A DNA stretch of 46,442 bases from an uncultured Gammaproteobacteria bacterium (GTDB lineage: Bacteria > Pseudomonadota > Gammaproteobacteria > SZUA-229), in the NCBI GenBank assembly GCA_965368175.1, contig CBDULX010000002.1:1-46442 (forward strand), given 5' to 3'. A program made the translations under genes and the position numbers. Of this stretch, positions 4,158 to 23,721 are shown one piece after another. Position 1 is the first letter of the stretch, and each line of letters begins with the position of its first letter. The notes under the pieces were generated by a model. That model was given only the letters and a program-made list of their open reading frames with translations. It had not been told where the DNA came from and did not search any database.

Positions 4158-4940
4158 ATGAGCATGTTCCTTAAACCTGATTTTAAAATAAGTCTGTTGC
4201 TTGCGGTGAGCATGGCTTCAGTGGTTATTGGCTGCAATCTTGATCCGATTGCCCAGGATCCTGGGTACCATTTTTTTGCTGATAATCGAACTGTTTTATC
4301 TATACCCAATTTTTATAATGCAGCTTCAAATATAATATTTGTCTTAGCAGGCATTTCTGGTAGTTTTTTAATCATTTTTCACAGGCCGCCATCTGTCAGT
4401 ACTGATGTTCGTGTTAATTACCTGGTTTTCTTTTCAGCTATTTTTCTGACTGGACTGGCTTCCAGCTATTATCATTTTTCCCCGGACAATACCCGCTTGT
4501 TTATTGATAGAATGGCTATAGCCATGGCTTTTATGGCCTTTCTATCAATCATAATCGCAGAATATATCACTGCAAAAAATGCTATGGTGCTGATGCTGCT
4601 ACTGATATTTATCGGACTTGCATCTGTTATCTACTGGTATATAACAGAATTAAATGGGGCAGGGGATTTACGCTGGTACGGACTGGTGCAGTTTCTTCCT
4701 TTAGTGCTCATCGCTTTAATCTTATTACTCTATCCATCTCCTGTGAATGATAAACTCTATATCTGGCTGGTTCTGATATTTTATTTTATTGCCAAGCTGT
4801 TCGAATTGAATGATACCAGTGTATATGAATATACGAGTTTTATCAGTGGGCACAGTATTAAACACATATTTGCAGGTTTAGCTCCTGTTATCTATTTATG
4901 CGCGCTTTATCATCGTAATATAAAACAAAAAAGCCGTTAG
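4158..4940 (+). CDS. polytopic membrane protein, ceramidase-like (alkaline phytoceramidase family) candidate
   Basis: 260 aa, about 7 TM helices. Motifs SSYYHFSPDN, IDRMAIAMAF and C-terminal GHSIKHIFAG resemble bacterial ceramidase-domain proteins. Assigned from memory of the motifs only. Confidence 0.5.
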   Translation: MSMFLKPDFKISLLLAVSMASVVIGCNLDPIAQDPGYHFFADNRTVLSIPNFYNAASNIIFVLAGISGSFLIIFHRPPSVSTDVRVNYLVFFSAIFLTGLASSYYHFSPDNTRLFIDRMAIAMAFMAFLSIIIAEYITAKNAMVLMLLLIFIGLASVIYWYITELNGAGDLRWYGLVQFLPLVLIALILLLYPSPVNDKLYIWLVLIFYFIAKLFELNDTSVYEYTSFISGHSIKHIFAGLAPVIYLCALYHRNIKQKSR

Positions 4941-4965
4941 ATACTTAGTACCTAACGGCTTTTTT
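4927..4965. terminator. bidirectional rho-independent terminator
   Basis: AAAAAAGCCGTTAG (4927-4940) pairs with CTAACGGCTTTTTT (4952-4965). The A-run on one side and T-run on the other could serve both convergent genes. Confidence 0.7.
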
Positions 4966-5038
4966 ACTCCTATCATTAATAAGAAAACATCTGGTTAATT
5001 CATGAACTGTTAGCCAAACCGAAGCAGCTGCCTGGTAA

Positions 5039-6085
5039 TTAAGGTAAATAGCCATCTGATAAGGTTTGCATGAATGTAACAATGGCATCTTCTTCAGCAC
5101 TGGTTAAACCCAGGTCGCCAAGAAACTGCCCATCCACTGTTTCTGGCACTTCAGGAGCTGGCCACATTCCCGGAATATCCCGTGTATTATAAAAATTTAC
5201 CACTTCCTTAAGCGTTTTCAGTACACCATTGTGCATATAGGGTGGTGTTAAGGCTACGTTCCTAAGATGCGTGGTTTTAAACTTACCATACTGGGCTGGA
5301 TCGTTAAGTACACCTCCAAGGCCCAAATCTCTAAAGTCTGCGGGCAGGTCAGGGCGTAGCACGAAAATTTCAGGATTGGCAGGCAGACCTAGATTATGGA
5401 ATTTAGCATCGGTGAAAATATCAGGATCTTTACCTGAACCCAGATCATGGCAATGGCTACATTTACCGGTTCCAGTGAATAGTTTAAGACCTCTTGCTTC
5501 AACGGCGGTAAAACTGGCTGTTCCTGCCTGTACGGCATCGTATTTGGAGCTGAATTTTTTAAAAGGTGTAGTGGTCTCAAATAGAGCAATAGCCTCCGCC
5601 ATGCAATTATAGGCAGCATCCACATTTAATGAAGGCCCACACAGGGCTTCAAAATCCGTCGCATAGGCTGTTGCCTGTATTTTTAGAATAACTGATGCCC
5701 TGTCCGGGTTATTCATCTCTACAGGGTTTAAGAACGGCCCTTTAGCCTGCTCGGTAAGGTTGGCTGCTCGACCATCCCAGAATTGACCACCCTTGATACC
5801 GCTTTTTAGAGTGAATTCAGGAAAGAACAGAGCATAGGAGGCGCTGGGTGAATTACGAGTGCCAAATCTGCCTGGAATCACACCTTCTGAAACGGGTAAA
5901 TTTTGATCTGGATCTGCAAAACCGAAAGCAGGATCATGGCAACTGGCACAGGACTGGCCGGCAGGTTCTGATAAAGATGCATCAAAAAATAGTTTTTCAC
6001 CTAATTGCGATTTTGTTAATGCTGCTGACGCTATAGATGAGAAGAATAAGCTGAGTATTAATCCAACTAGCGTAGACGGTTTCAT
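5039..6085 (-). CDS. di-haem cytochrome c peroxidase (CCP/MauG family), periplasmic
   Basis: 348 aa with a signal peptide (MKPSTLVGLILSLFFSSIASAA). Two CxxCH haem motifs (CASCH, CSHCH) and a conserved PPYMHNG block. Confidence 0.85.
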   Translation of the reverse strand: MKPSTLVGLILSLFFSSIASAALTKSQLGEKLFFDASLSEPAGQSCASCHDPAFGFADPDQNLPVSEGVIPGRFGTRNSPSASYALFFPEFTLKSGIKGGQFWDGRAANLTEQAKGPFLNPVEMNNPDRASVILKIQATAYATDFEALCGPSLNVDAAYNCMAEAIALFETTTPFKKFSSKYDAVQAGTASFTAVEARGLKLFTGTGKCSHCHDLGSGKDPDIFTDAKFHNLGLPANPEIFVLRPDLPADFRDLGLGGVLNDPAQYGKFKTTHLRNVALTPPYMHNGVLKTLKEVVNFYNTRDIPGMWPAPEVPETVDGQFLGDLGLTSAEEDAIVTFMQTLSDGYLP

Positions 6086-7240: not shown

Positions 7241-8036
7241 ATTCACGCATTGCAACTATACCTGGCGTTTACTCCCAAGCTGTTTATTCTTCATTTTTTT
7301 ATACTGAATACATTAATTATTTAATCCCTGTTATTAATTTGGAAACTCTGATCAAGTCACGATTGTTTTATGCAGCCTAAATTCAACCAGACATGATGAG
7401 AAGTTCCTTAGTTTCAGTTACAGGAATTAAATCTCGTCTATATTTTTCTTTTAAATTCAGAAGCAATAAAAATCTTAATAAAACTAAATCCTGACCAACC
7501 AGATATTTGCAACATATAATTAGGGCTGTAACATAATTAGTTAAACAGATTATAACTAATTACTTATATCGCCAAGATGACTCTTGTACTTCTAAAGAAT
7601 GCTTCAAATATTTTTGTCAGTAATTTTCGCAAAAAAATATTTTAGATTTGTATTTTCCTTGATTTATTTCAAGGAACATTTATTATGCCCTTAGAATAAA
7701 TTGGTACTTTGATATTTGTCTAGTACCGCATAATATATGATTCGGTTTATAAACATATTCACGAATAATTATATTAATAATTTCTAATAAGAAAAGACCA
7801 TTATATTAATAAAGAGATGCGCATTACTAAAATTATTAAGCTAGTTCACTGTGACCAGGTCATATAAATGCAACTAGCGTCACTCACTGTATTTCATTAT
7901 TTAGGAGCATTGCTCTTCTATTCGATTGCGCATCTCAAAATAACTATCAGGCCATTTATTAAACAAAAATATTTAGTGTGTGCAGGTGTGTGAAAATTTA
8001 AAAAATAATTAAAAAACCACTTTCCGGAGGGTGTAT

Positions 8037-18639: not shown

Positions 18640-20025
18640 CTAAAGATCAGCAACAGCTGCTTTATTCTCAACAGGAAGCCTGATTGTAAAGGTAGAACCT
18701 GATCCTACTGTGCTTTCTACTTCTATCTTTCCATGGTGCTTCTCGATAATAGTATAGGACAATGACAAACCGAGCCCAGTGCCTGAACCCACAGGTTTAG
18801 ATGTATAAAATGGGTCAAAAATCCTGTTGATTTTATCTTCAGGTATCCCTGTGCCGGTATCCTGTATTTTAATCCAGACAAAATCATTAGATAATCCTGT
18901 CGCTATTGTTATAGTGCCATGCTTCTCGATTGCATGTGCAGCATTTACAAGTACATTCATAAAAACCTGGTTAATTTGTGAGGCAATACATTCGACTTCA
19001 GGTATTTCACCGTAATTTTTAATTATGTCCGCCTTATATTTTAGTTCATTATGTACAATATTTAGAGTACTATCGAGGCCTTTATGAAGGTCGGCCCATT
19101 GCATCTCCATATCATCAACATGTGAAAAGTCTTTAAGATCATTTACTATTTTTTTTACTCTTGACACACCCTCCAGAGACTCGTCGATTAATGAATGCAA
19201 ATCTGTTTTAATAAAATTAAGATCTACATCTTTGATTTTTTTGGCTAAAGTATTTTTAAGTTCTATATTATCTGATTGAGATTGTTCGTAATATTCTGAA
19301 AATAAATCAATTACTGAAATCAAATCAGATGCATAGCCTTTCAGGCTTGCCATATTTGAATTTATATAACCAACAGGATTATTGATTTCATGTGCCACTC
19401 CAGCCGCTAGCTGACCTATAGATGCTAATTTTTCAGACTGAAGTAATTGATTATGGGCTTCTTCTAGTTGTTTATTTAATTTTTTTTGTTGATTTAGCAG
19501 TTCCTGAGACTGATCAAGTAAACGTGCATTTTCAACTGCTAATGCCGTGAAATGAATAATATTACTGCCTTTTTTCAGGTCCTGTTCTGTAAATGAAAAC
19601 TCCTCAGAGTCTTCGTTGATACTAATGACGCCAACGAGTTCATTTTCTACTAATAATGGCCAGCACATTGATGAGCGATTTTGTGCGCTTTTTTTGCTAT
19701 TGGTCATAATATTTAGTTTATTATCTCTGAGATCTCCATTTAATAATAATGGTTTTTTATTTTCTGCAACCCATCCAAGCACAGCGGATCCAAACGGAAC
19801 TACATTCCCAATGGCTTCTCTGGGTAGACCGATACCCGCGATTATTGTCAGACTCTTATTGTCAGGATTAGTGTGGGCTATACAGCCAGTATTAGCATTA
19901 AATGCAGTTATAATATATTTAAGCAACTCCTCTCGTGCAGATTCTTTTGCATCTGAAGATGATGCCTTTTGACCTAATCTATATAAATTATAGATCCATG
20001 CAAGTGTTATAGTAGATTGTGACAT
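18640..20025 (-). CDS. soluble GAF-domain sensor histidine kinase
   Basis: 461 aa with no TM segment. N-terminal GAF-like domain and a coiled coil. H-box AAGVAHEINNP, N-box NVLVNAAHA, G1 DTGTGI, G2 GSGTGLGLS. Confidence 0.9.
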   Translation of the reverse strand: MSQSTITLAWIYNLYRLGQKASSSDAKESAREELLKYIITAFNANTGCIAHTNPDNKSLTIIAGIGLPREAIGNVVPFGSAVLGWVAENKKPLLLNGDLRDNKLNIMTNSKKSAQNRSSMCWPLLVENELVGVISINEDSEEFSFTEQDLKKGSNIIHFTALAVENARLLDQSQELLNQQKKLNKQLEEAHNQLLQSEKLASIGQLAAGVAHEINNPVGYINSNMASLKGYASDLISVIDLFSEYYEQSQSDNIELKNTLAKKIKDVDLNFIKTDLHSLIDESLEGVSRVKKIVNDLKDFSHVDDMEMQWADLHKGLDSTLNIVHNELKYKADIIKNYGEIPEVECIASQINQVFMNVLVNAAHAIEKHGTITIATGLSNDFVWIKIQDTGTGIPEDKINRIFDPFYTSKPVGSGTGLGLSLSYTIIEKHHGKIEVESTVGSGSTFTIRLPVENKAAVADL

Positions 20026-20165
20026 GTAACAGTTGTCTCGGTTGATTATCTATAAAGTCCTGTATCTTCTAAATATGAATGATTCCATAATATATCTATT
20101 AATAGTTAAGTCGTAATTGATAAATAAGAATCACTGTCATTAAATCGTGCATACTTATTACTCAT

Positions 20166-21479
20166 TTATGACTTTATATAGATTACAAGTTCTTCATTAA
20201 GTGAACCTTCAAGATTCTTAATCTGTTTGATCATATGCTCTCCTAGCCTATGCCCCTCTGATAATAGTAAAACTCCATCATTTGTTAATAAGTCCCTTGC
20301 AAGTACCATATTTTGTTCTAATTTTGATGCAGGCATTAATATAACTTCCTGCTCCTTAATGTTATTGTCTTTCTCATTAACATTTATAATACTAAAAAAT
20401 ATATCAACTAATTCTGGATCATATCTTGAGTTTTTATTTGCGGAGATAAATTCCATTGCTCTAGAGTTTGTTAGCCTTGTCTTTGTAATCGCCCCCACCT
20501 GTAAAGCATCAAAATCACTCACGATAGCTAAAATCCTTGATCCTACAGGAATATCGCTACCAGATAATTTGTCTGGATATCCTTTGCCATCAAATCGTTC
20601 CCTGTAATTACGAATAATTTTTGCAGCTTCCTTCAGCGGCTCTATCGCCATCAGAATACCTTCACCAATAACAGGGTGTTTAGCGAATGTGTATTGATTA
20701 TCCGGCGATAAGCTAGATTGTGGTTTGTTAAGTAAATTATCCGGAAATCCAATTTTACCAATATCGCGTAATAAACCAGCATAGGAAATCTGTTGGGCAG
20801 ATTCTTTTGTTAACCCGTATTTTATTGCCACTGCTTTAGAAGTTTCAGATACTATTTTTGAATGACCACTTAAAGTACCAGCTCTCATTTCTATTATATT
20901 TGAAAAAACTTTAACTGTAGATGTATAACTTTCCTTTAATGTTTCATAAGAAGCTTCCAGCATACCCATAGTCTGATTTAGTTCAGAGGTCCTTGATTTA
21001 ACCATGGATTCGAGATTAGTATTGAATTCCTTTAGTTCTTCATTTTGCTTACTGGTCAAGGCAAGCAGCCTGTCTCTTTCAAGCTCTATCTTTTTACTCT
21101 CGATTGCATTTCTTACAGTTTGCTTCAGGTCATTTTCTTCCCAGGGTTTACTTATATATTTATATATATTGCCTTTATTAATGGCATCTATTGTTGAAGA
21201 TATTTCTGAAAACCCCGTGAGCAGTATCCTGACTGTGGACGGCCATTTATTATAAACAGCTTCGAGAAATTGCGCACCATTCATTTCAGGCATTCGCATA
21301 TCTGAAACTACAAGACTAATATTTTCAGTCTCCATAATTTCAAGTCCCATTCTACCACTATTAGCAAGGTGAATATCATAGCCCTCACTTCTAAATAAAC
21401 GATTTAGTGACGACAATATGTTTTTTTCATCGTCTACAAATAGTATAGAAACTTTATTTTCTTCGATATTTTCAGACAT
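20166..21479 (-). CDS. response regulator: REC plus degenerate HD-GYP domain plus ~60-aa C-terminal module
   Basis: REC is intact (VDDE, VVSDMRMP, SKPW). The HD-GYP scaffold is present (GHSKIV, KHPVIG, DGKGYP, SDFDAL), but HD reads RD (LLRDIGK) and HHE reads YRE (NYRERFDGKGYP). Confidence 0.88.
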   Translation of the reverse strand: MSENIEENKVSILFVDDEKNILSSLNRLFRSEGYDIHLANSGRMGLEIMETENISLVVSDMRMPEMNGAQFLEAVYNKWPSTVRILLTGFSEISSTIDAINKGNIYKYISKPWEENDLKQTVRNAIESKKIELERDRLLALTSKQNEELKEFNTNLESMVKSRTSELNQTMGMLEASYETLKESYTSTVKVFSNIIEMRAGTLSGHSKIVSETSKAVAIKYGLTKESAQQISYAGLLRDIGKIGFPDNLLNKPQSSLSPDNQYTFAKHPVIGEGILMAIEPLKEAAKIIRNYRERFDGKGYPDKLSGSDIPVGSRILAIVSDFDALQVGAITKTRLTNSRAMEFISANKNSRYDPELVDIFFSIINVNEKDNNIKEQEVILMPASKLEQNMVLARDLLTNDGVLLLSEGHRLGEHMIKQIKNLEGSLNEELVIYIKS

Positions 21480-21572
21480 AATTATTATTCTGCCTGTGAG
21501 TCAGGTTGATTAACAAGTGCGATGTATCTGTAATTAGACATCATCGACAGCCTGTATAATTTGTGTTCACAA

Positions 21573-21739
21573 TTAAGGGCACCTCTATCAATTCTGAATA
21601 TGTCAGATTAAGATTTAAAATTCGCCAGATCAGGACGCGAATCGCATGTAATAGCAAGCTATTGCATAGATTAGTAACGTAGAGATAGTAAATTTTAAAC
21701 TCAATATGCTTATTCATGAATTAATAGAGGTGCCCTTAA
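21573..21739. repeat. ~167-nt imperfect palindromic element with 16-nt perfect terminal inverted repeats
   Basis: TTAAGGGCACCTCTAT (21573-21588) is the exact reverse complement of 21724-21739. The arms pair imperfectly for ~50 nt. An inner hairpin ATGTAATAG-caag-CTATTGCAT lies near the centre. Confidence 0.75.
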
Positions 21740-22572
21740 GTATTAATATTTATAAAACTTTCAGTTATAGCTTCAATCATGGATAAATTATCTTCAATTA
21801 ATGAAATATTAATATTATCCTTTTTAAAAATAGAATCATCTTTTACAGGCATCAATGAATTATCTACAGTACTGTATCCCAGGCCATGACTGGTTATATC
21901 AGATAACATCAAGATATCGGTTAGATTAATATCTGAATCAATATCTACTGAATTATGGTGAGACCTTATGACCCTGCATATATCAGCTGGAAGCTTCCAG
22001 TTTTCACAGACCACAGCGCCAATCTCACAGTGATCTGTATCCAGTATCTTTTGTTCTGCTTCAATAAATAAACAGTCCTCACTGTTTTTATAATCCAGTA
22101 CATTTTTGTACATATCAGGAATATAATAATCAAAAATCATTTTGCCTATATCATGCAGTAAACCACTTATGAATGCGACATCTTCATTAAGCCCAGATAT
22201 TTTTGAATACACCTTTGCAGCAGCTGCTGTGCCTACTTCGTGTTCCCATATTTTCTTGAAATCAAGATTATTACCGTAGTCACCTTTAAATCTACTCATT
22301 ACCGCAGAGGACACAATCAGGTTGCGTATTGTATTTATTCCCAGCACCAGGCACGCTTCTTTTACATTTGTTATTTCACCTGGCATACCAAAAAATGATG
22401 AATTAGCAAGTGACAGTATTTTTCCTGTCAATCCTGTATGCTGAATTATTTTCTTTTCTAAAATAGTAAAATCTATATTTTCATTAGCATTAATTAAATT
22501 CAAAATCTCAACCACTTCAGGCGACAAAGGCGGTATCTGATTAAGCTTATTAAGTATTTTCTTATCAGTCAT
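21736..22572 (-). CDS. HDOD-domain signalling protein
   Basis: 278 aa. Contains LPPLSPEVVEILNLI, SSFFGMPGEITNVKEACLVLG and GLLHDIGKMIFDYY, which are hallmarks of HDOD. Confidence 0.85.
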   Translation of the reverse strand: MTDKKILNKLNQIPPLSPEVVEILNLINANENIDFTILEKKIIQHTGLTGKILSLANSSFFGMPGEITNVKEACLVLGINTIRNLIVSSAVMSRFKGDYGNNLDFKKIWEHEVGTAAAAKVYSKISGLNEDVAFISGLLHDIGKMIFDYYIPDMYKNVLDYKNSEDCLFIEAEQKILDTDHCEIGAVVCENWKLPADICRVIRSHHNSVDIDSDINLTDILMLSDITSHGLGYSTVDNSLMPVKDDSIFKKDNINISLIEDNLSMIEAITESFININT

Positions 22573-22897
22573 TATCTGTATCTATATTTTTTACTCTGAA
22601 ATTAAAAAATACCTGCTTCAATTGAATCATTGCAGGAAAATCTACAAGGTATTTAAATTTTAGATCCAGTTCTTTCTTTATGCCTGCTTTAATCTCAAGG
22701 GCCTGTTCCGGACTTAATGTTATATTTTCATATATAGATATTTGTTGTATATTCCTTTTTTTCAGACCATCAATAACCCCAATAGTGAGCACACTACCTG
22801 TAGGTAACAGGCATACCCCTAGTTTATCAATCACATCACTTGCCAACTGCATCCCTGTTTCTGCATTTTCCATATCAATAGTGATGATTTTTTTCAT
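22565..22897 (-). CDS. 110-aa protein related to the C-terminal module of the REC-HD-GYP protein
   Basis: 2 nt after the REC-PAS stop, with an 8-nt overlap with the HDOD start. GMQLASDVIDKLGVCLLPTGSVLTIGVIDGLKK aligns with NMVLARDLLTNDGVLLLSEGHRLGEHMIKQIKN of ORF 20166..21479. Confidence 0.6.
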   Translation of the reverse strand: MKKIITIDMENAETGMQLASDVIDKLGVCLLPTGSVLTIGVIDGLKKRNIQQISIYENITLSPEQALEIKAGIKKELDLKFKYLVDFPAMIQLKQVFFNFRVKNIDTDND

Positions 22898-22899
22898 GG

Positions 22900-23721
22900 T
22901 TATGTAGTCACAGGGACGATTGTAATGACAACTCCACCAGTACCTGCAGTAGAATTCATTTTCTTGATTATAATTCTGTTATCTTTATGCCTACACTGCA
23001 GTATGTTTTCAGTATCGATACCATGCAGAGTTTCAAAACACGTTTTTATTTCTTCAGGCAAAACCTGCATGGCATTCTGCGTTATTAAGCCACCCTGTGC
23101 TACAGATAGAAGTTCATGGGCTTTATCATTTGCCACTACAATTATGCGTTCGTCAGATATTCCCAATACACCAACAGGCTGCTGGTTCATGACTTGTTGT
23201 GTTATTTTTAAGACCTGTGATTCTATTTTTGATTCTCTGTTCTGTTCCACCACTCTATTTTCAAGTACTTCATTGAGCCTTTGTAATTCATTATTCAAAC
23301 GCTTGTTTTCACTTAAAAGCCTGAAGTGAGTAAATGCTTTACTGATGTTCTCCCGTAACAAATCATCTTCCCAGGGTTTAGTCAGGAATTTGTATATTGC
23401 ACCTTGATTAATTGCTTCAGTAATGGAATTTAGATCTGTATATCCACTCAGAACCATACGTATGGTGTCCGGGTAGAGCTGCTTTACCTGACGCAGAAAT
23501 TCGACGCCAGACCCTTCAGGCATGCGCTGATCAGAAAGAATTACCCCTGCTGTATTGCTTTTCAGGATCTCAAGACCTTCATCTGCACTCGAAGCAGTTA
23601 GAATGGTATAGCCGTCTTTGCGGAGAAGCCTTACCAGAGCTTTCAGTATGTTTTCTTCGTCATCAACGAGTAAAATGGTTTTTTCGGCATCCTCTTCTTT
23701 TAATGCACCTTTACCATTCAT
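22900..23721 (-). CDS. response regulator: REC plus coiled coil plus PAS-like C-terminal domain
   Basis: REC motifs VDDE, ILSDQRMP and TKPW. It is the same receiver subtype as ORF 20166..21479. The ~110-aa C-terminal domain is PAS-like and no DNA-binding domain is present. Confidence 0.8.
   Translation of the reverse strand: MNGKGALKEEDAEKTILLVDDEENILKALVRLLRKDGYTILTASSADEGLEILKSNTAGVILSDQRMPEGSGVEFLRQVKQLYPDTIRMVLSGYTDLNSITEAINQGAIYKFLTKPWEDDLLRENISKAFTHFRLLSENKRLNNELQRLNEVLENRVVEQNRESKIESQVLKITQQVMNQQPVGVLGISDERIIVVANDKAHELLSVAQGGLITQNAMQVLPEEIKTCFETLHGIDTENILQCRHKDNRIIIKKMNSTAGTGGVVITIVPVTT

Follow-up and report, generated by a model that had tools for sequence, protein, structure and literature searches.

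What does an HD-GYP protein do once histidines that should hold its metals have been replaced? The question is raised by a gene at positions 20166..21479 (minus strand) of a 46,442-nucleotide stretch of DNA from an uncultured gammaproteobacterium of the SZUA-229 lineage (contig CBDULX010000002.1, assembly GCA_965368175.1); the whole stretch is referred to below as the window. The gene encodes a 437-residue response regulator of the NosR family, in which a receiver (REC) domain is joined by a long helix to a degenerate HD-GYP domain, with a C-terminal module behind it (open-reading-frame, Pfam, and NCBIfam evidence). A preliminary description of the DNA had pointed out the substitutions and proposed a non-catalytic sensor or adaptor controlled by phosphorylation. 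The frame was found to be open and to encode 437 residues, and every motif quoted in that description was located where it had been placed. The analysis makes it quite likely, on the strength of sequence comparisons and a structural model, that the protein is a phosphorylation-controlled regulator of the NosR family whose HD-GYP part is a non-catalytic output domain acting through protein contacts.

Substitutions in the metal site

The HD-GYP domain (HD_5, PF13487) covers residues 190-357 (20409..20912, minus strand). It was detected with 139.3 bits against a curated cut-off of 27.2 bits and matched positions 1-170 of the 170-position model in the Pfam search; identical coordinates were returned by the search of the whole genome. 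Two of its motifs are degenerate, and the translation around them reads SYAGLLRDIGKIGFPD and IIRNYRERFDGKGYPD. At the first, R238-D239 (20763..20768, minus strand) occupies the place of the HD dyad (H221-D222 in PmGH) within LLRDIGK; the codon of R238 is CGC at 20766-20768 and that of D239 lies at 20763-20765, exactly to the base as described earlier. At the second, where the frame reads NYRERFDGKGYP, N291-Y292-R293-E294 (20598..20609, minus strand) replaces the xHHE motif (PmGH H276, H277, and E278), again in agreement with the earlier account.

The substituted positions were compared with those of PmGH (Protein Data Bank (PDB) 4mcw), V-cGAP3 (5z7c), and PA4781 (4r8z) using HMMER alignments; the chain index in these alignments equals the PmGH number plus 6, and it was corrected before residues were matched. 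In all three alignments R238 falls under the His of (L/M)HDIGK, and Y292-R293 fall under the HH of HHE(R/K)xDGxG(Y/F)P. The check that the preliminary description had called for was thus run, and the substituted positions are the ligand positions: R238, Y292, and R293 correspond to PmGH H221, H276, and H277. The tri-iron center of PmGH is held by E185, H189, H221, D222, H250, H276, H277, and D305 (PMC4159591). Replacement of H221, H276, or H277 by alanine essentially abolishes activity in each case, and the E185A and D305A proteins keep some (PMC4159591).

Other parts of the site are retained. The ligand-type residue H206 (20862..20864, minus strand; PmGH H189) is present in GHSKIV and is Gln, Asn, or another residue in sister lineages; H268 (20676..20678, minus strand; PmGH H250) is present in KHPVIG and is Phe in a sister subclade. 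The sequence G300-Y301-P302 (20574..20582, minus strand) preserves the GYP of the E-x-x-D-G-x-G-[YF]-P loop. In SDFDAL (residues 321-326), which includes D322-F323-D324 (20508..20516, minus strand), D324 aligns with PmGH D308; the column of PmGH D305 is occupied by S321, and D322 stands one residue further on. The statement that the rest of the scaffold was kept held only in part: GHSKIV, KHPVIG, GYP, and SDFDAL are all present, but the last is a form of a family-wide [NS]D[YF]DAL, and there is no RxYK. Throughout the family of ~440-residue proteins to which this one belongs, canonical members included, [NS]D[YF]DAL is found instead of DxxDAL, and no RxYK is conserved.

The nucleotide in PmGH is contacted by K235/G237 (of KPG), Y285, and R314/K317 (of RxYK), and both PmGH and V-cGAP3 carry RPY[KR] after DAL. 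In the present protein KPQ is found for KPG, the GYP tyrosine is kept, and GAITK takes the place of DRPYK. Judged by its sequence, the protein lacks the HD dyad, the HHE motif, and the RxY[K/R]/KPG elements of an active HD-GYP phosphodiesterase and retains its GYP.

Retention of the substitutions among relatives

A homologue search covering 5.8 billion proteins was used to recover full-length relatives. Among the nearest of these, at 55-79% identity, Arg stands in place of the HD histidine in nearly every case, and those at ~50% identity (from Sulfuricella, Sideroxyarcus, Methylophilaceae, and others) mostly have canonical GHS, HD, KHP, and HHE motifs. In a maximum-likelihood tree of 128 sequences, the protein was placed within a clade of 35 clusters (Shimodaira-Hasegawa-like approximate likelihood ratio test, 99) that is nested among canonical HHDHHH proteins; the ligand columns, few among 449, were kept in the alignment, so that tree and trait are not fully independent. 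The equivalent of PmGH H221 has been lost in 35 of the 35 clade clusters (32 Arg, 2 Cys, and 1 Gln), and R238 itself is conserved in 91% of the clade.

Erosion of the site has gone further inside the clade, with H189 changed to Gln or Asn, H250 to Phe, and D308 to Tyr (PmGH numbering). As these three ligands are also lost in sister lineages, metal binding does not seem to be under selection. The residue D322 is invariant in the clade, and the position of D324 is Tyr in 69% of it. The arginine is encoded among the relatives by CGC, CGA, CGG, AGA, and AGG, and its being written with five different codons points to selection at the level of the amino acid. Around the GYP motif, 106 homologues show no variation at E294, G298, G300, and P302, and D297 is conserved at 97-100%.

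Selection was gauged by domain-wise identity and codon diversity, since proteins 76-79% identical have saturated synonymous sites. At matched REC identity (0.7-0.8), the HD-GYP domain's identity stood at 0.50 in the clade versus 0.64 in canonical relatives, which indicates that the constraint on this domain is relaxed but far from absent. Within the taxonomic family of the window's organism, an orthologue was found in 5 of 25 genomes, distributed over four genera, and all five are degenerate. These patterns indicate that the substitutions are neither sequencing error nor decay.

Degeneracy in the NosR family

The protein matched the NCBIfam model NF053512 ("response regulator c-di-GMP phosphodiesterase, NosR family"; c-di-GMP, cyclic diguanosine monophosphate) over positions 1-422 of 422 with 544.2 bits, the cut-off being 400 bits, and its gene is the only NF053512 gene of its kind in the genome. 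Scores of 528-540 bits were obtained for other members of the Arg clade, 594 bits for canonical Sulfuricella proteins, 557 bits for an HG...GTP protein from Burkholderia lata, and 450 bits for a YN-type protein (P0239).

Metal-site loss is common in the NosR family as sampled by sequence: of 85 family loci, taken for the most part from species-representative genomes, 48 have a degenerate site, counted as a change in at least one of six ligand positions, and the tree demands at least five changes of ligand state. Arg or Lys at the position of the HD histidine recurs in other lineages of the family (loci L034, L042, L058, and L063). It was also observed that even those members with a complete set of metal ligands lack the RxYK motif for c-di-GMP specificity.

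Receiver, stalk, and C-terminal module

The receiver domain comprises residues 12-122 (21114..21446, minus strand; Pfam Response_reg, 81 bits). Its phospho-acceptor, D60, is encoded by GAT at 21300-21302, and this residue does not vary among the 106 homologues, nor do the acidic pair D16/D17, T88, and K111.

A model was calculated with AlphaFold2 from the 106-sequence alignment (mean predicted local distance difference test (pLDDT) score, 91.6). It features the receiver, a single helix, a helical HD-GYP domain, and a small C-terminal beta/alpha module. The helix, assigned with DSSP, runs continuously for ~85 residues (115-200; 20880..21137, minus strand) from the receiver into the HD-GYP domain and is presumed to be a dimerizing stalk; in DvhD, stalk helices ahead of the HD-GYP domain drive dimerization and switching (PMC13090378). 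When the output part of the model was submitted to Foldseek, the top matches were PA4781 (4r8z), PmGH (4mcw), and DvhD (9rbz), with E-values of ~1e-10.

The C-terminal module consists of ~66 residues (372-437; 20169..20366, minus strand; pLDDT 90.4). A 110-residue protein encoded nearby carries a homologue of it in its N-terminal ~50 residues (hhalign probability of 97% and E = 8.8e-11 over 44 columns), and the two have the pattern L-x-x-G-M-x-L-A-x-D-x5-G-x-L-L-x-x-G-x-x-L in common; a BLASTP comparison of the C-terminal tail with the same 110-residue frame was not significant (E = 11). There was no credible match to the module in Pfam (best E = 0.032) and no significant fold match in the PDB (best E = 0.26). 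A weak resemblance to the N-terminal DUF3391 domain of Bd1817 was noted (PDB fold match, E = 0.55).

Neighboring genes and genome context

The gene is one of five co-oriented genes, which encode a REC-PAS protein, the 110-residue protein, an HDOD protein, the REC-HD-GYP protein, and a GAF histidine kinase. The last of these (18640..20025, minus strand) is a soluble protein with Pfam GAF_2 and HATPase_c domains and the H-box AHEINNP; it is probably the cognate kinase/phosphatase of the REC-HD-GYP protein. Over its full length it is 50% identical to the GAF kinase whose gene, in Sulfuricella denitrificans, lies directly upstream of that for the canonical orthologue, and the sensor-less kinases of related clusters match its core at 41-45% identity. 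Such a GAF kinase neighbors canonical and degenerate orthologues alike. The HEINN sequence is the H-box motif of NosK and a signature of kinase/phosphatase activity (PMC12570481).

The HDOD protein (21736..22572, minus strand; 278 residues; Pfam HDOD, 174 bits) has a counterpart near 47 of the 85 family loci, as detected with tblastn, and also in loci L007-L010. The 110-residue protein (22565..22897, minus strand), for which Pfam and NCBIfam searches gave no match, contains a stand-alone copy of the C-terminal module according to the profile comparison. The REC-PAS protein (22900..23721, minus strand) was recognized with Pfam. Its receiver and linker match positions 1-172 of NF053512 with 190 bits; its sequence suggests a paralogue of the NosR family's N-terminal half that has a PAS-like output.

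A palindromic element of ~167 nucleotides, resembling a miniature inverted-repeat transposable element (MITE), lies at 21573-21739 between the stop codon of the HDOD gene and the REC-HD-GYP gene. Its 29-nucleotide arms are 86% complementary, and at least nine further copies (72-89% identity, some with longer inserts) were found on contigs C3, C13, C15, C18, C30, C31, C35, C63, and C131.

Related clusters are larger. They comprise genes for a small protein, an HDOD protein, a GAF kinase, a REC-HD-GYP protein, a REC protein, an Arf/Ras-like GTPase, a sensor-less kinase, and a REC-MshEN-T2SSE ATPase, MshEN being a c-di-GMP-binding domain. A conserved nine-gene signaling cluster of this sort, which holds canonical or degenerate orthologues, was observed in L009 (4420-13097) and L010 (5008-13064), and the arrangement in the window is its reduced, five-gene form. 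No description of the complete nine-gene cluster was found. A search of the genome for the Arf-like GTPase gene gave no match. A 749-residue frame on contig C3, considered as the REC-MshEN-T2SSE ATPase, was rejected upon being recognized as a PAS kinase, and the best REC plus T2SSE-like frame in the genome (contig C56) has 35% identity.

An orthologous locus with 76% identity (L007) has the SecDF...SCO1/CtaA synteny in common with the window. There, a gene for a 529-residue histidine kinase (4405-5994) precedes the REC-HD-GYP gene and one for a 176-residue receiver (7328-7858) follows it; no remnants of either were detectable in the corresponding spacers of the window (21480-21735 and 20026-20165). 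No FIST (NosP) gene adjoins the REC-HD-GYP gene. The single FIST gene of the genome is located on contig C13 between phosphoribulokinase-like and TatD-like genes, without an adjacent kinase or regulator; because this sole FIST gene lies elsewhere and has no kinase next to it, an assignment to nitric oxide sensing was dropped.

Five other HD_5 domains are encoded in the genome. Three have full ligands and canonical HDxGK and HHE motifs, one has the ligands and an atypical HDAGM, and one has FD for HD. The FD form belongs to a paralogue on contig C82 (10590-11906) with a DUF3391-like N-terminus, in which LFDVGK places Phe at the HD histidine and HHE and GYP are kept; on its sequence, this is another partly degenerate site. 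The genome also encodes ~37 GGDEF and ~22 EAL domains, and with these and the canonical HD-GYP genes it offers plenty of c-di-GMP machinery on which a regulator without catalysis could act.

Comparison with characterized proteins

The best-studied relative is NosR of Burkholderia pseudomallei (BPSS1648), a degenerate HD-GYP protein (HG-GTP) that rapidly receives phosphate from NosK, a soluble kinase, and whose proposed targets are other c-di-GMP enzymes (PMC12570481). The two proteins have in common the full-length architecture and the family model, a degenerate HD-GYP domain, and an intact receiver, and in both systems there is a kinase with a HEINN H-box. They differ in their substitutions, which are HG and GTP in NosR versus RD and YRE with an intact GYP here. 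The systems also differ in that no NosP (FIST) gene is adjacent in the window, the kinase has a GAF sensor of its own, and the neighbors are the HDOD, 110-residue, and REC-PAS proteins.

Pseudomonas aeruginosa PA2572, which the preliminary description had cited as a precedent, was described there accurately: its motif is YNIGK, and it is enzymically inactive yet regulatory (PMC3411652; PMC3749722). It has an uncharacterized C-terminal domain (PMC3411652; PMC3749722), the removal of which is reported to unmask a phenotype. By its published description, PA2572 resembles the present protein in combining a REC domain, a degenerate HD-GYP domain, and a C-terminal domain, with the REC domain mediating a protein interaction; it differs in that HD has become YN rather than RD, and its partner is the orphan chemoreceptor PA2573.

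The RpfG family is known to hold both active and inactive forms, and among the latter HnoD (SE/QLE) inhibits the REC-EAL enzyme HnoB (Galperin and Chou). HnoD (Shewanella oneidensis SO_2541) is likewise a REC-HD-GYP protein, with HD changed to SE and HHE to QLE, and it does not hydrolyze c-di-GMP; it belongs, however, to an H-NOX/HnoK network, and its substitutions are others. The HD-GYP fold of DvhD (Desulfovibrio vulgaris; PDB 9rbz/9rc0) is degenerate and holds no metal; the model was matched to it by Foldseek with an E-value of 5e-10 and template-modeling scores of 0.78-0.80 (normalized to target length). DvhD differs in being a dCache-PAS-HD-GYP membrane receptor that keeps RxYR and binds c-di-GMP; RxYR is absent here.

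The REC-HD-GYP layout and fold and the GYP loop are also found in RpfG (Xanthomonas campestris), PmGH, PA4781, and V-cGAP3. RpfG needs its GYP motif for the binding of GGDEF proteins that phosphorylation promotes. Active HD-GYP enzymes have the full H..HD..H..HHE..D set, whereas three of the His ligands and RxYK are missing from the present protein. With its RD and YRE substitutions and conserved Arg, the lineage has its own variant of a theme known from NosR, PA2572, and HnoD.

Proposed function and alternatives

The loss of three ligand histidines, one of them (PmGH H221) throughout the clade, in a family that is often degenerate, supports the non-catalytic sensor or adaptor put forward in the preliminary description, and the control by phosphorylation suggested there is plausible, since the receiver residues are intact and a kinase gene is adjacent. 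Of the two roles, that of an adaptor appears preferable to that of a nucleotide sensor because the RxYK nucleotide-contact motif is missing. In the mechanism envisaged, the HD-GYP domain would be unable to assemble a two- or three-metal center and would not carry out canonical c-di-GMP hydrolysis. The GAF kinase, which has a NosK-like HEINN dimerization and histidine phosphotransfer domain and is probably bifunctional, would set the phosphorylation of D60. The signal would then run along the long dimeric stalk to the HD-GYP dimer, which would change the presentation of its invariant GYP loop and of the C-terminal module to other proteins; the candidates for these partners are the GGDEF/EAL enzymes of the genome or the co-encoded HDOD and 110-residue proteins. 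The vacated metal site may be filled by R238 and R293, pairing with D239, E294, and D322. We infer the loss of activity (from the sequence), the pairing with the kinase, the output by interaction, and the identity of the partners.

Several observations weigh against this proposal. A relative from the same genus has Gln (CAG) at position 238, so the Arg is not indispensable. The changes from His to Arg and from His to Tyr are single transitions, and their appearance, as opposed to their retention, needs no selection. The window's own subclade keeps four ligand-type residues (H206, D239, H268, and D324), at which a single metal could still bind. Finally, the MITE-like repeat may interrupt co-transcription with the upstream genes.

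The main alternative is a metal-independent cyclic-dinucleotide receptor (for c-di-GMP, pGpG, or cyclic GMP-AMP) in the manner of DvhD, with R238 and R293 contacting the phosphates and the output set by ligand and REC phosphorylation together. DvhD, whose HD-GYP domain is degenerate (HD to SQ and HH to MN), does bind c-di-GMP without metal as a receptor (PDB 9rbz; PMC13090378), and its Y621 (the GYP tyrosine by HMMER alignment) and K582 contact the phosphodiester. The GYP tyrosine and the lysine of the GK pair (K242) are kept here, two cationic side chains, with the Arg conserved, would line the former metal pocket, and the c-di-GMP network of the genome is large. However, the RxY[K/R] motif (R650/Y652 in DvhD; R314/K317 in PmGH) is absent (GAITK) and has no conserved substitute family-wide, KPG reads KPQ, and the HMMER alignment to DvhD ends ahead of the RxYR region; in DvhD, the R650A and Y652A/R653A changes impair stabilization by c-di-GMP (PMC13090378). 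Binding in the manner of DvhD is thus regarded as possible but is not favored on the sequence, and a receptor of this kind is thought unlikely. It is a tentative idea, with only a slim chance of being right, that R238 and R293 form a guanidinium-based, metal-free phosphate pocket (a new type of nucleotide sensor without the RxYK lid) or mimic the charge of the metal center and so lock the "metal-loaded" conformation.

A residual or altered hydrolase, in which a single metal bound by H206, D239, H268, E294, and D322/D324 would allow a weak or modified phosphohydrolase reaction, is considered very improbable. It would accord with the persistence of the four ligand-type residues in the window's subclade (P0001-P0006), with the partial activity of PmGH E185A and D305A (PMC4159591), and with the title of the PA4781 structure, according to which some HD-GYP sites are metal-unselective. 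Yet three changes are combined here, each of which alone essentially abolishes the activity of PmGH, and related lineages of the clade have lost the remaining ligands too while keeping the protein. A further proposition is that the gene is decaying, a former phosphodiesterase drifting toward loss with a functionless HD-GYP part. The lower HD-GYP identity of the clade at matched REC identity (0.50 versus 0.64), the patchy occurrence of the gene (5 of 25 genomes of the taxonomic family), and the reduction of the local cassette with respect to relatives would all fit such drift. Against it, no relative found has a broken 437-codon frame, invariant positions are numerous in the HD-GYP part, the clade has deep roots, and there is synonymous variation in the codons for the Arg; decay is therefore given hardly any credence. 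The phosphorylation-controlled, non-catalytic regulator is the reading retained.

Implications

The current understanding of the field is left unchanged by this protein, which, on its sequence, adds a well-documented natural example, from a deep clade with a conserved Arg, to the catalytically dead HD-GYP regulators. In the NosR family a lost metal site is the prevailing state rather than an oddity (48 of the 85 sampled loci, with at least five independent losses); the automatic name "c-di-GMP phosphodiesterase" overstates these genes, and genome-wide counts of phosphodiesterases should leave such genes out. Pairs of canonical and degenerate orthologues, each encoded beside a GAF kinase and an HDOD protein, offer a clean system for the study of function that survives the loss of catalysis.

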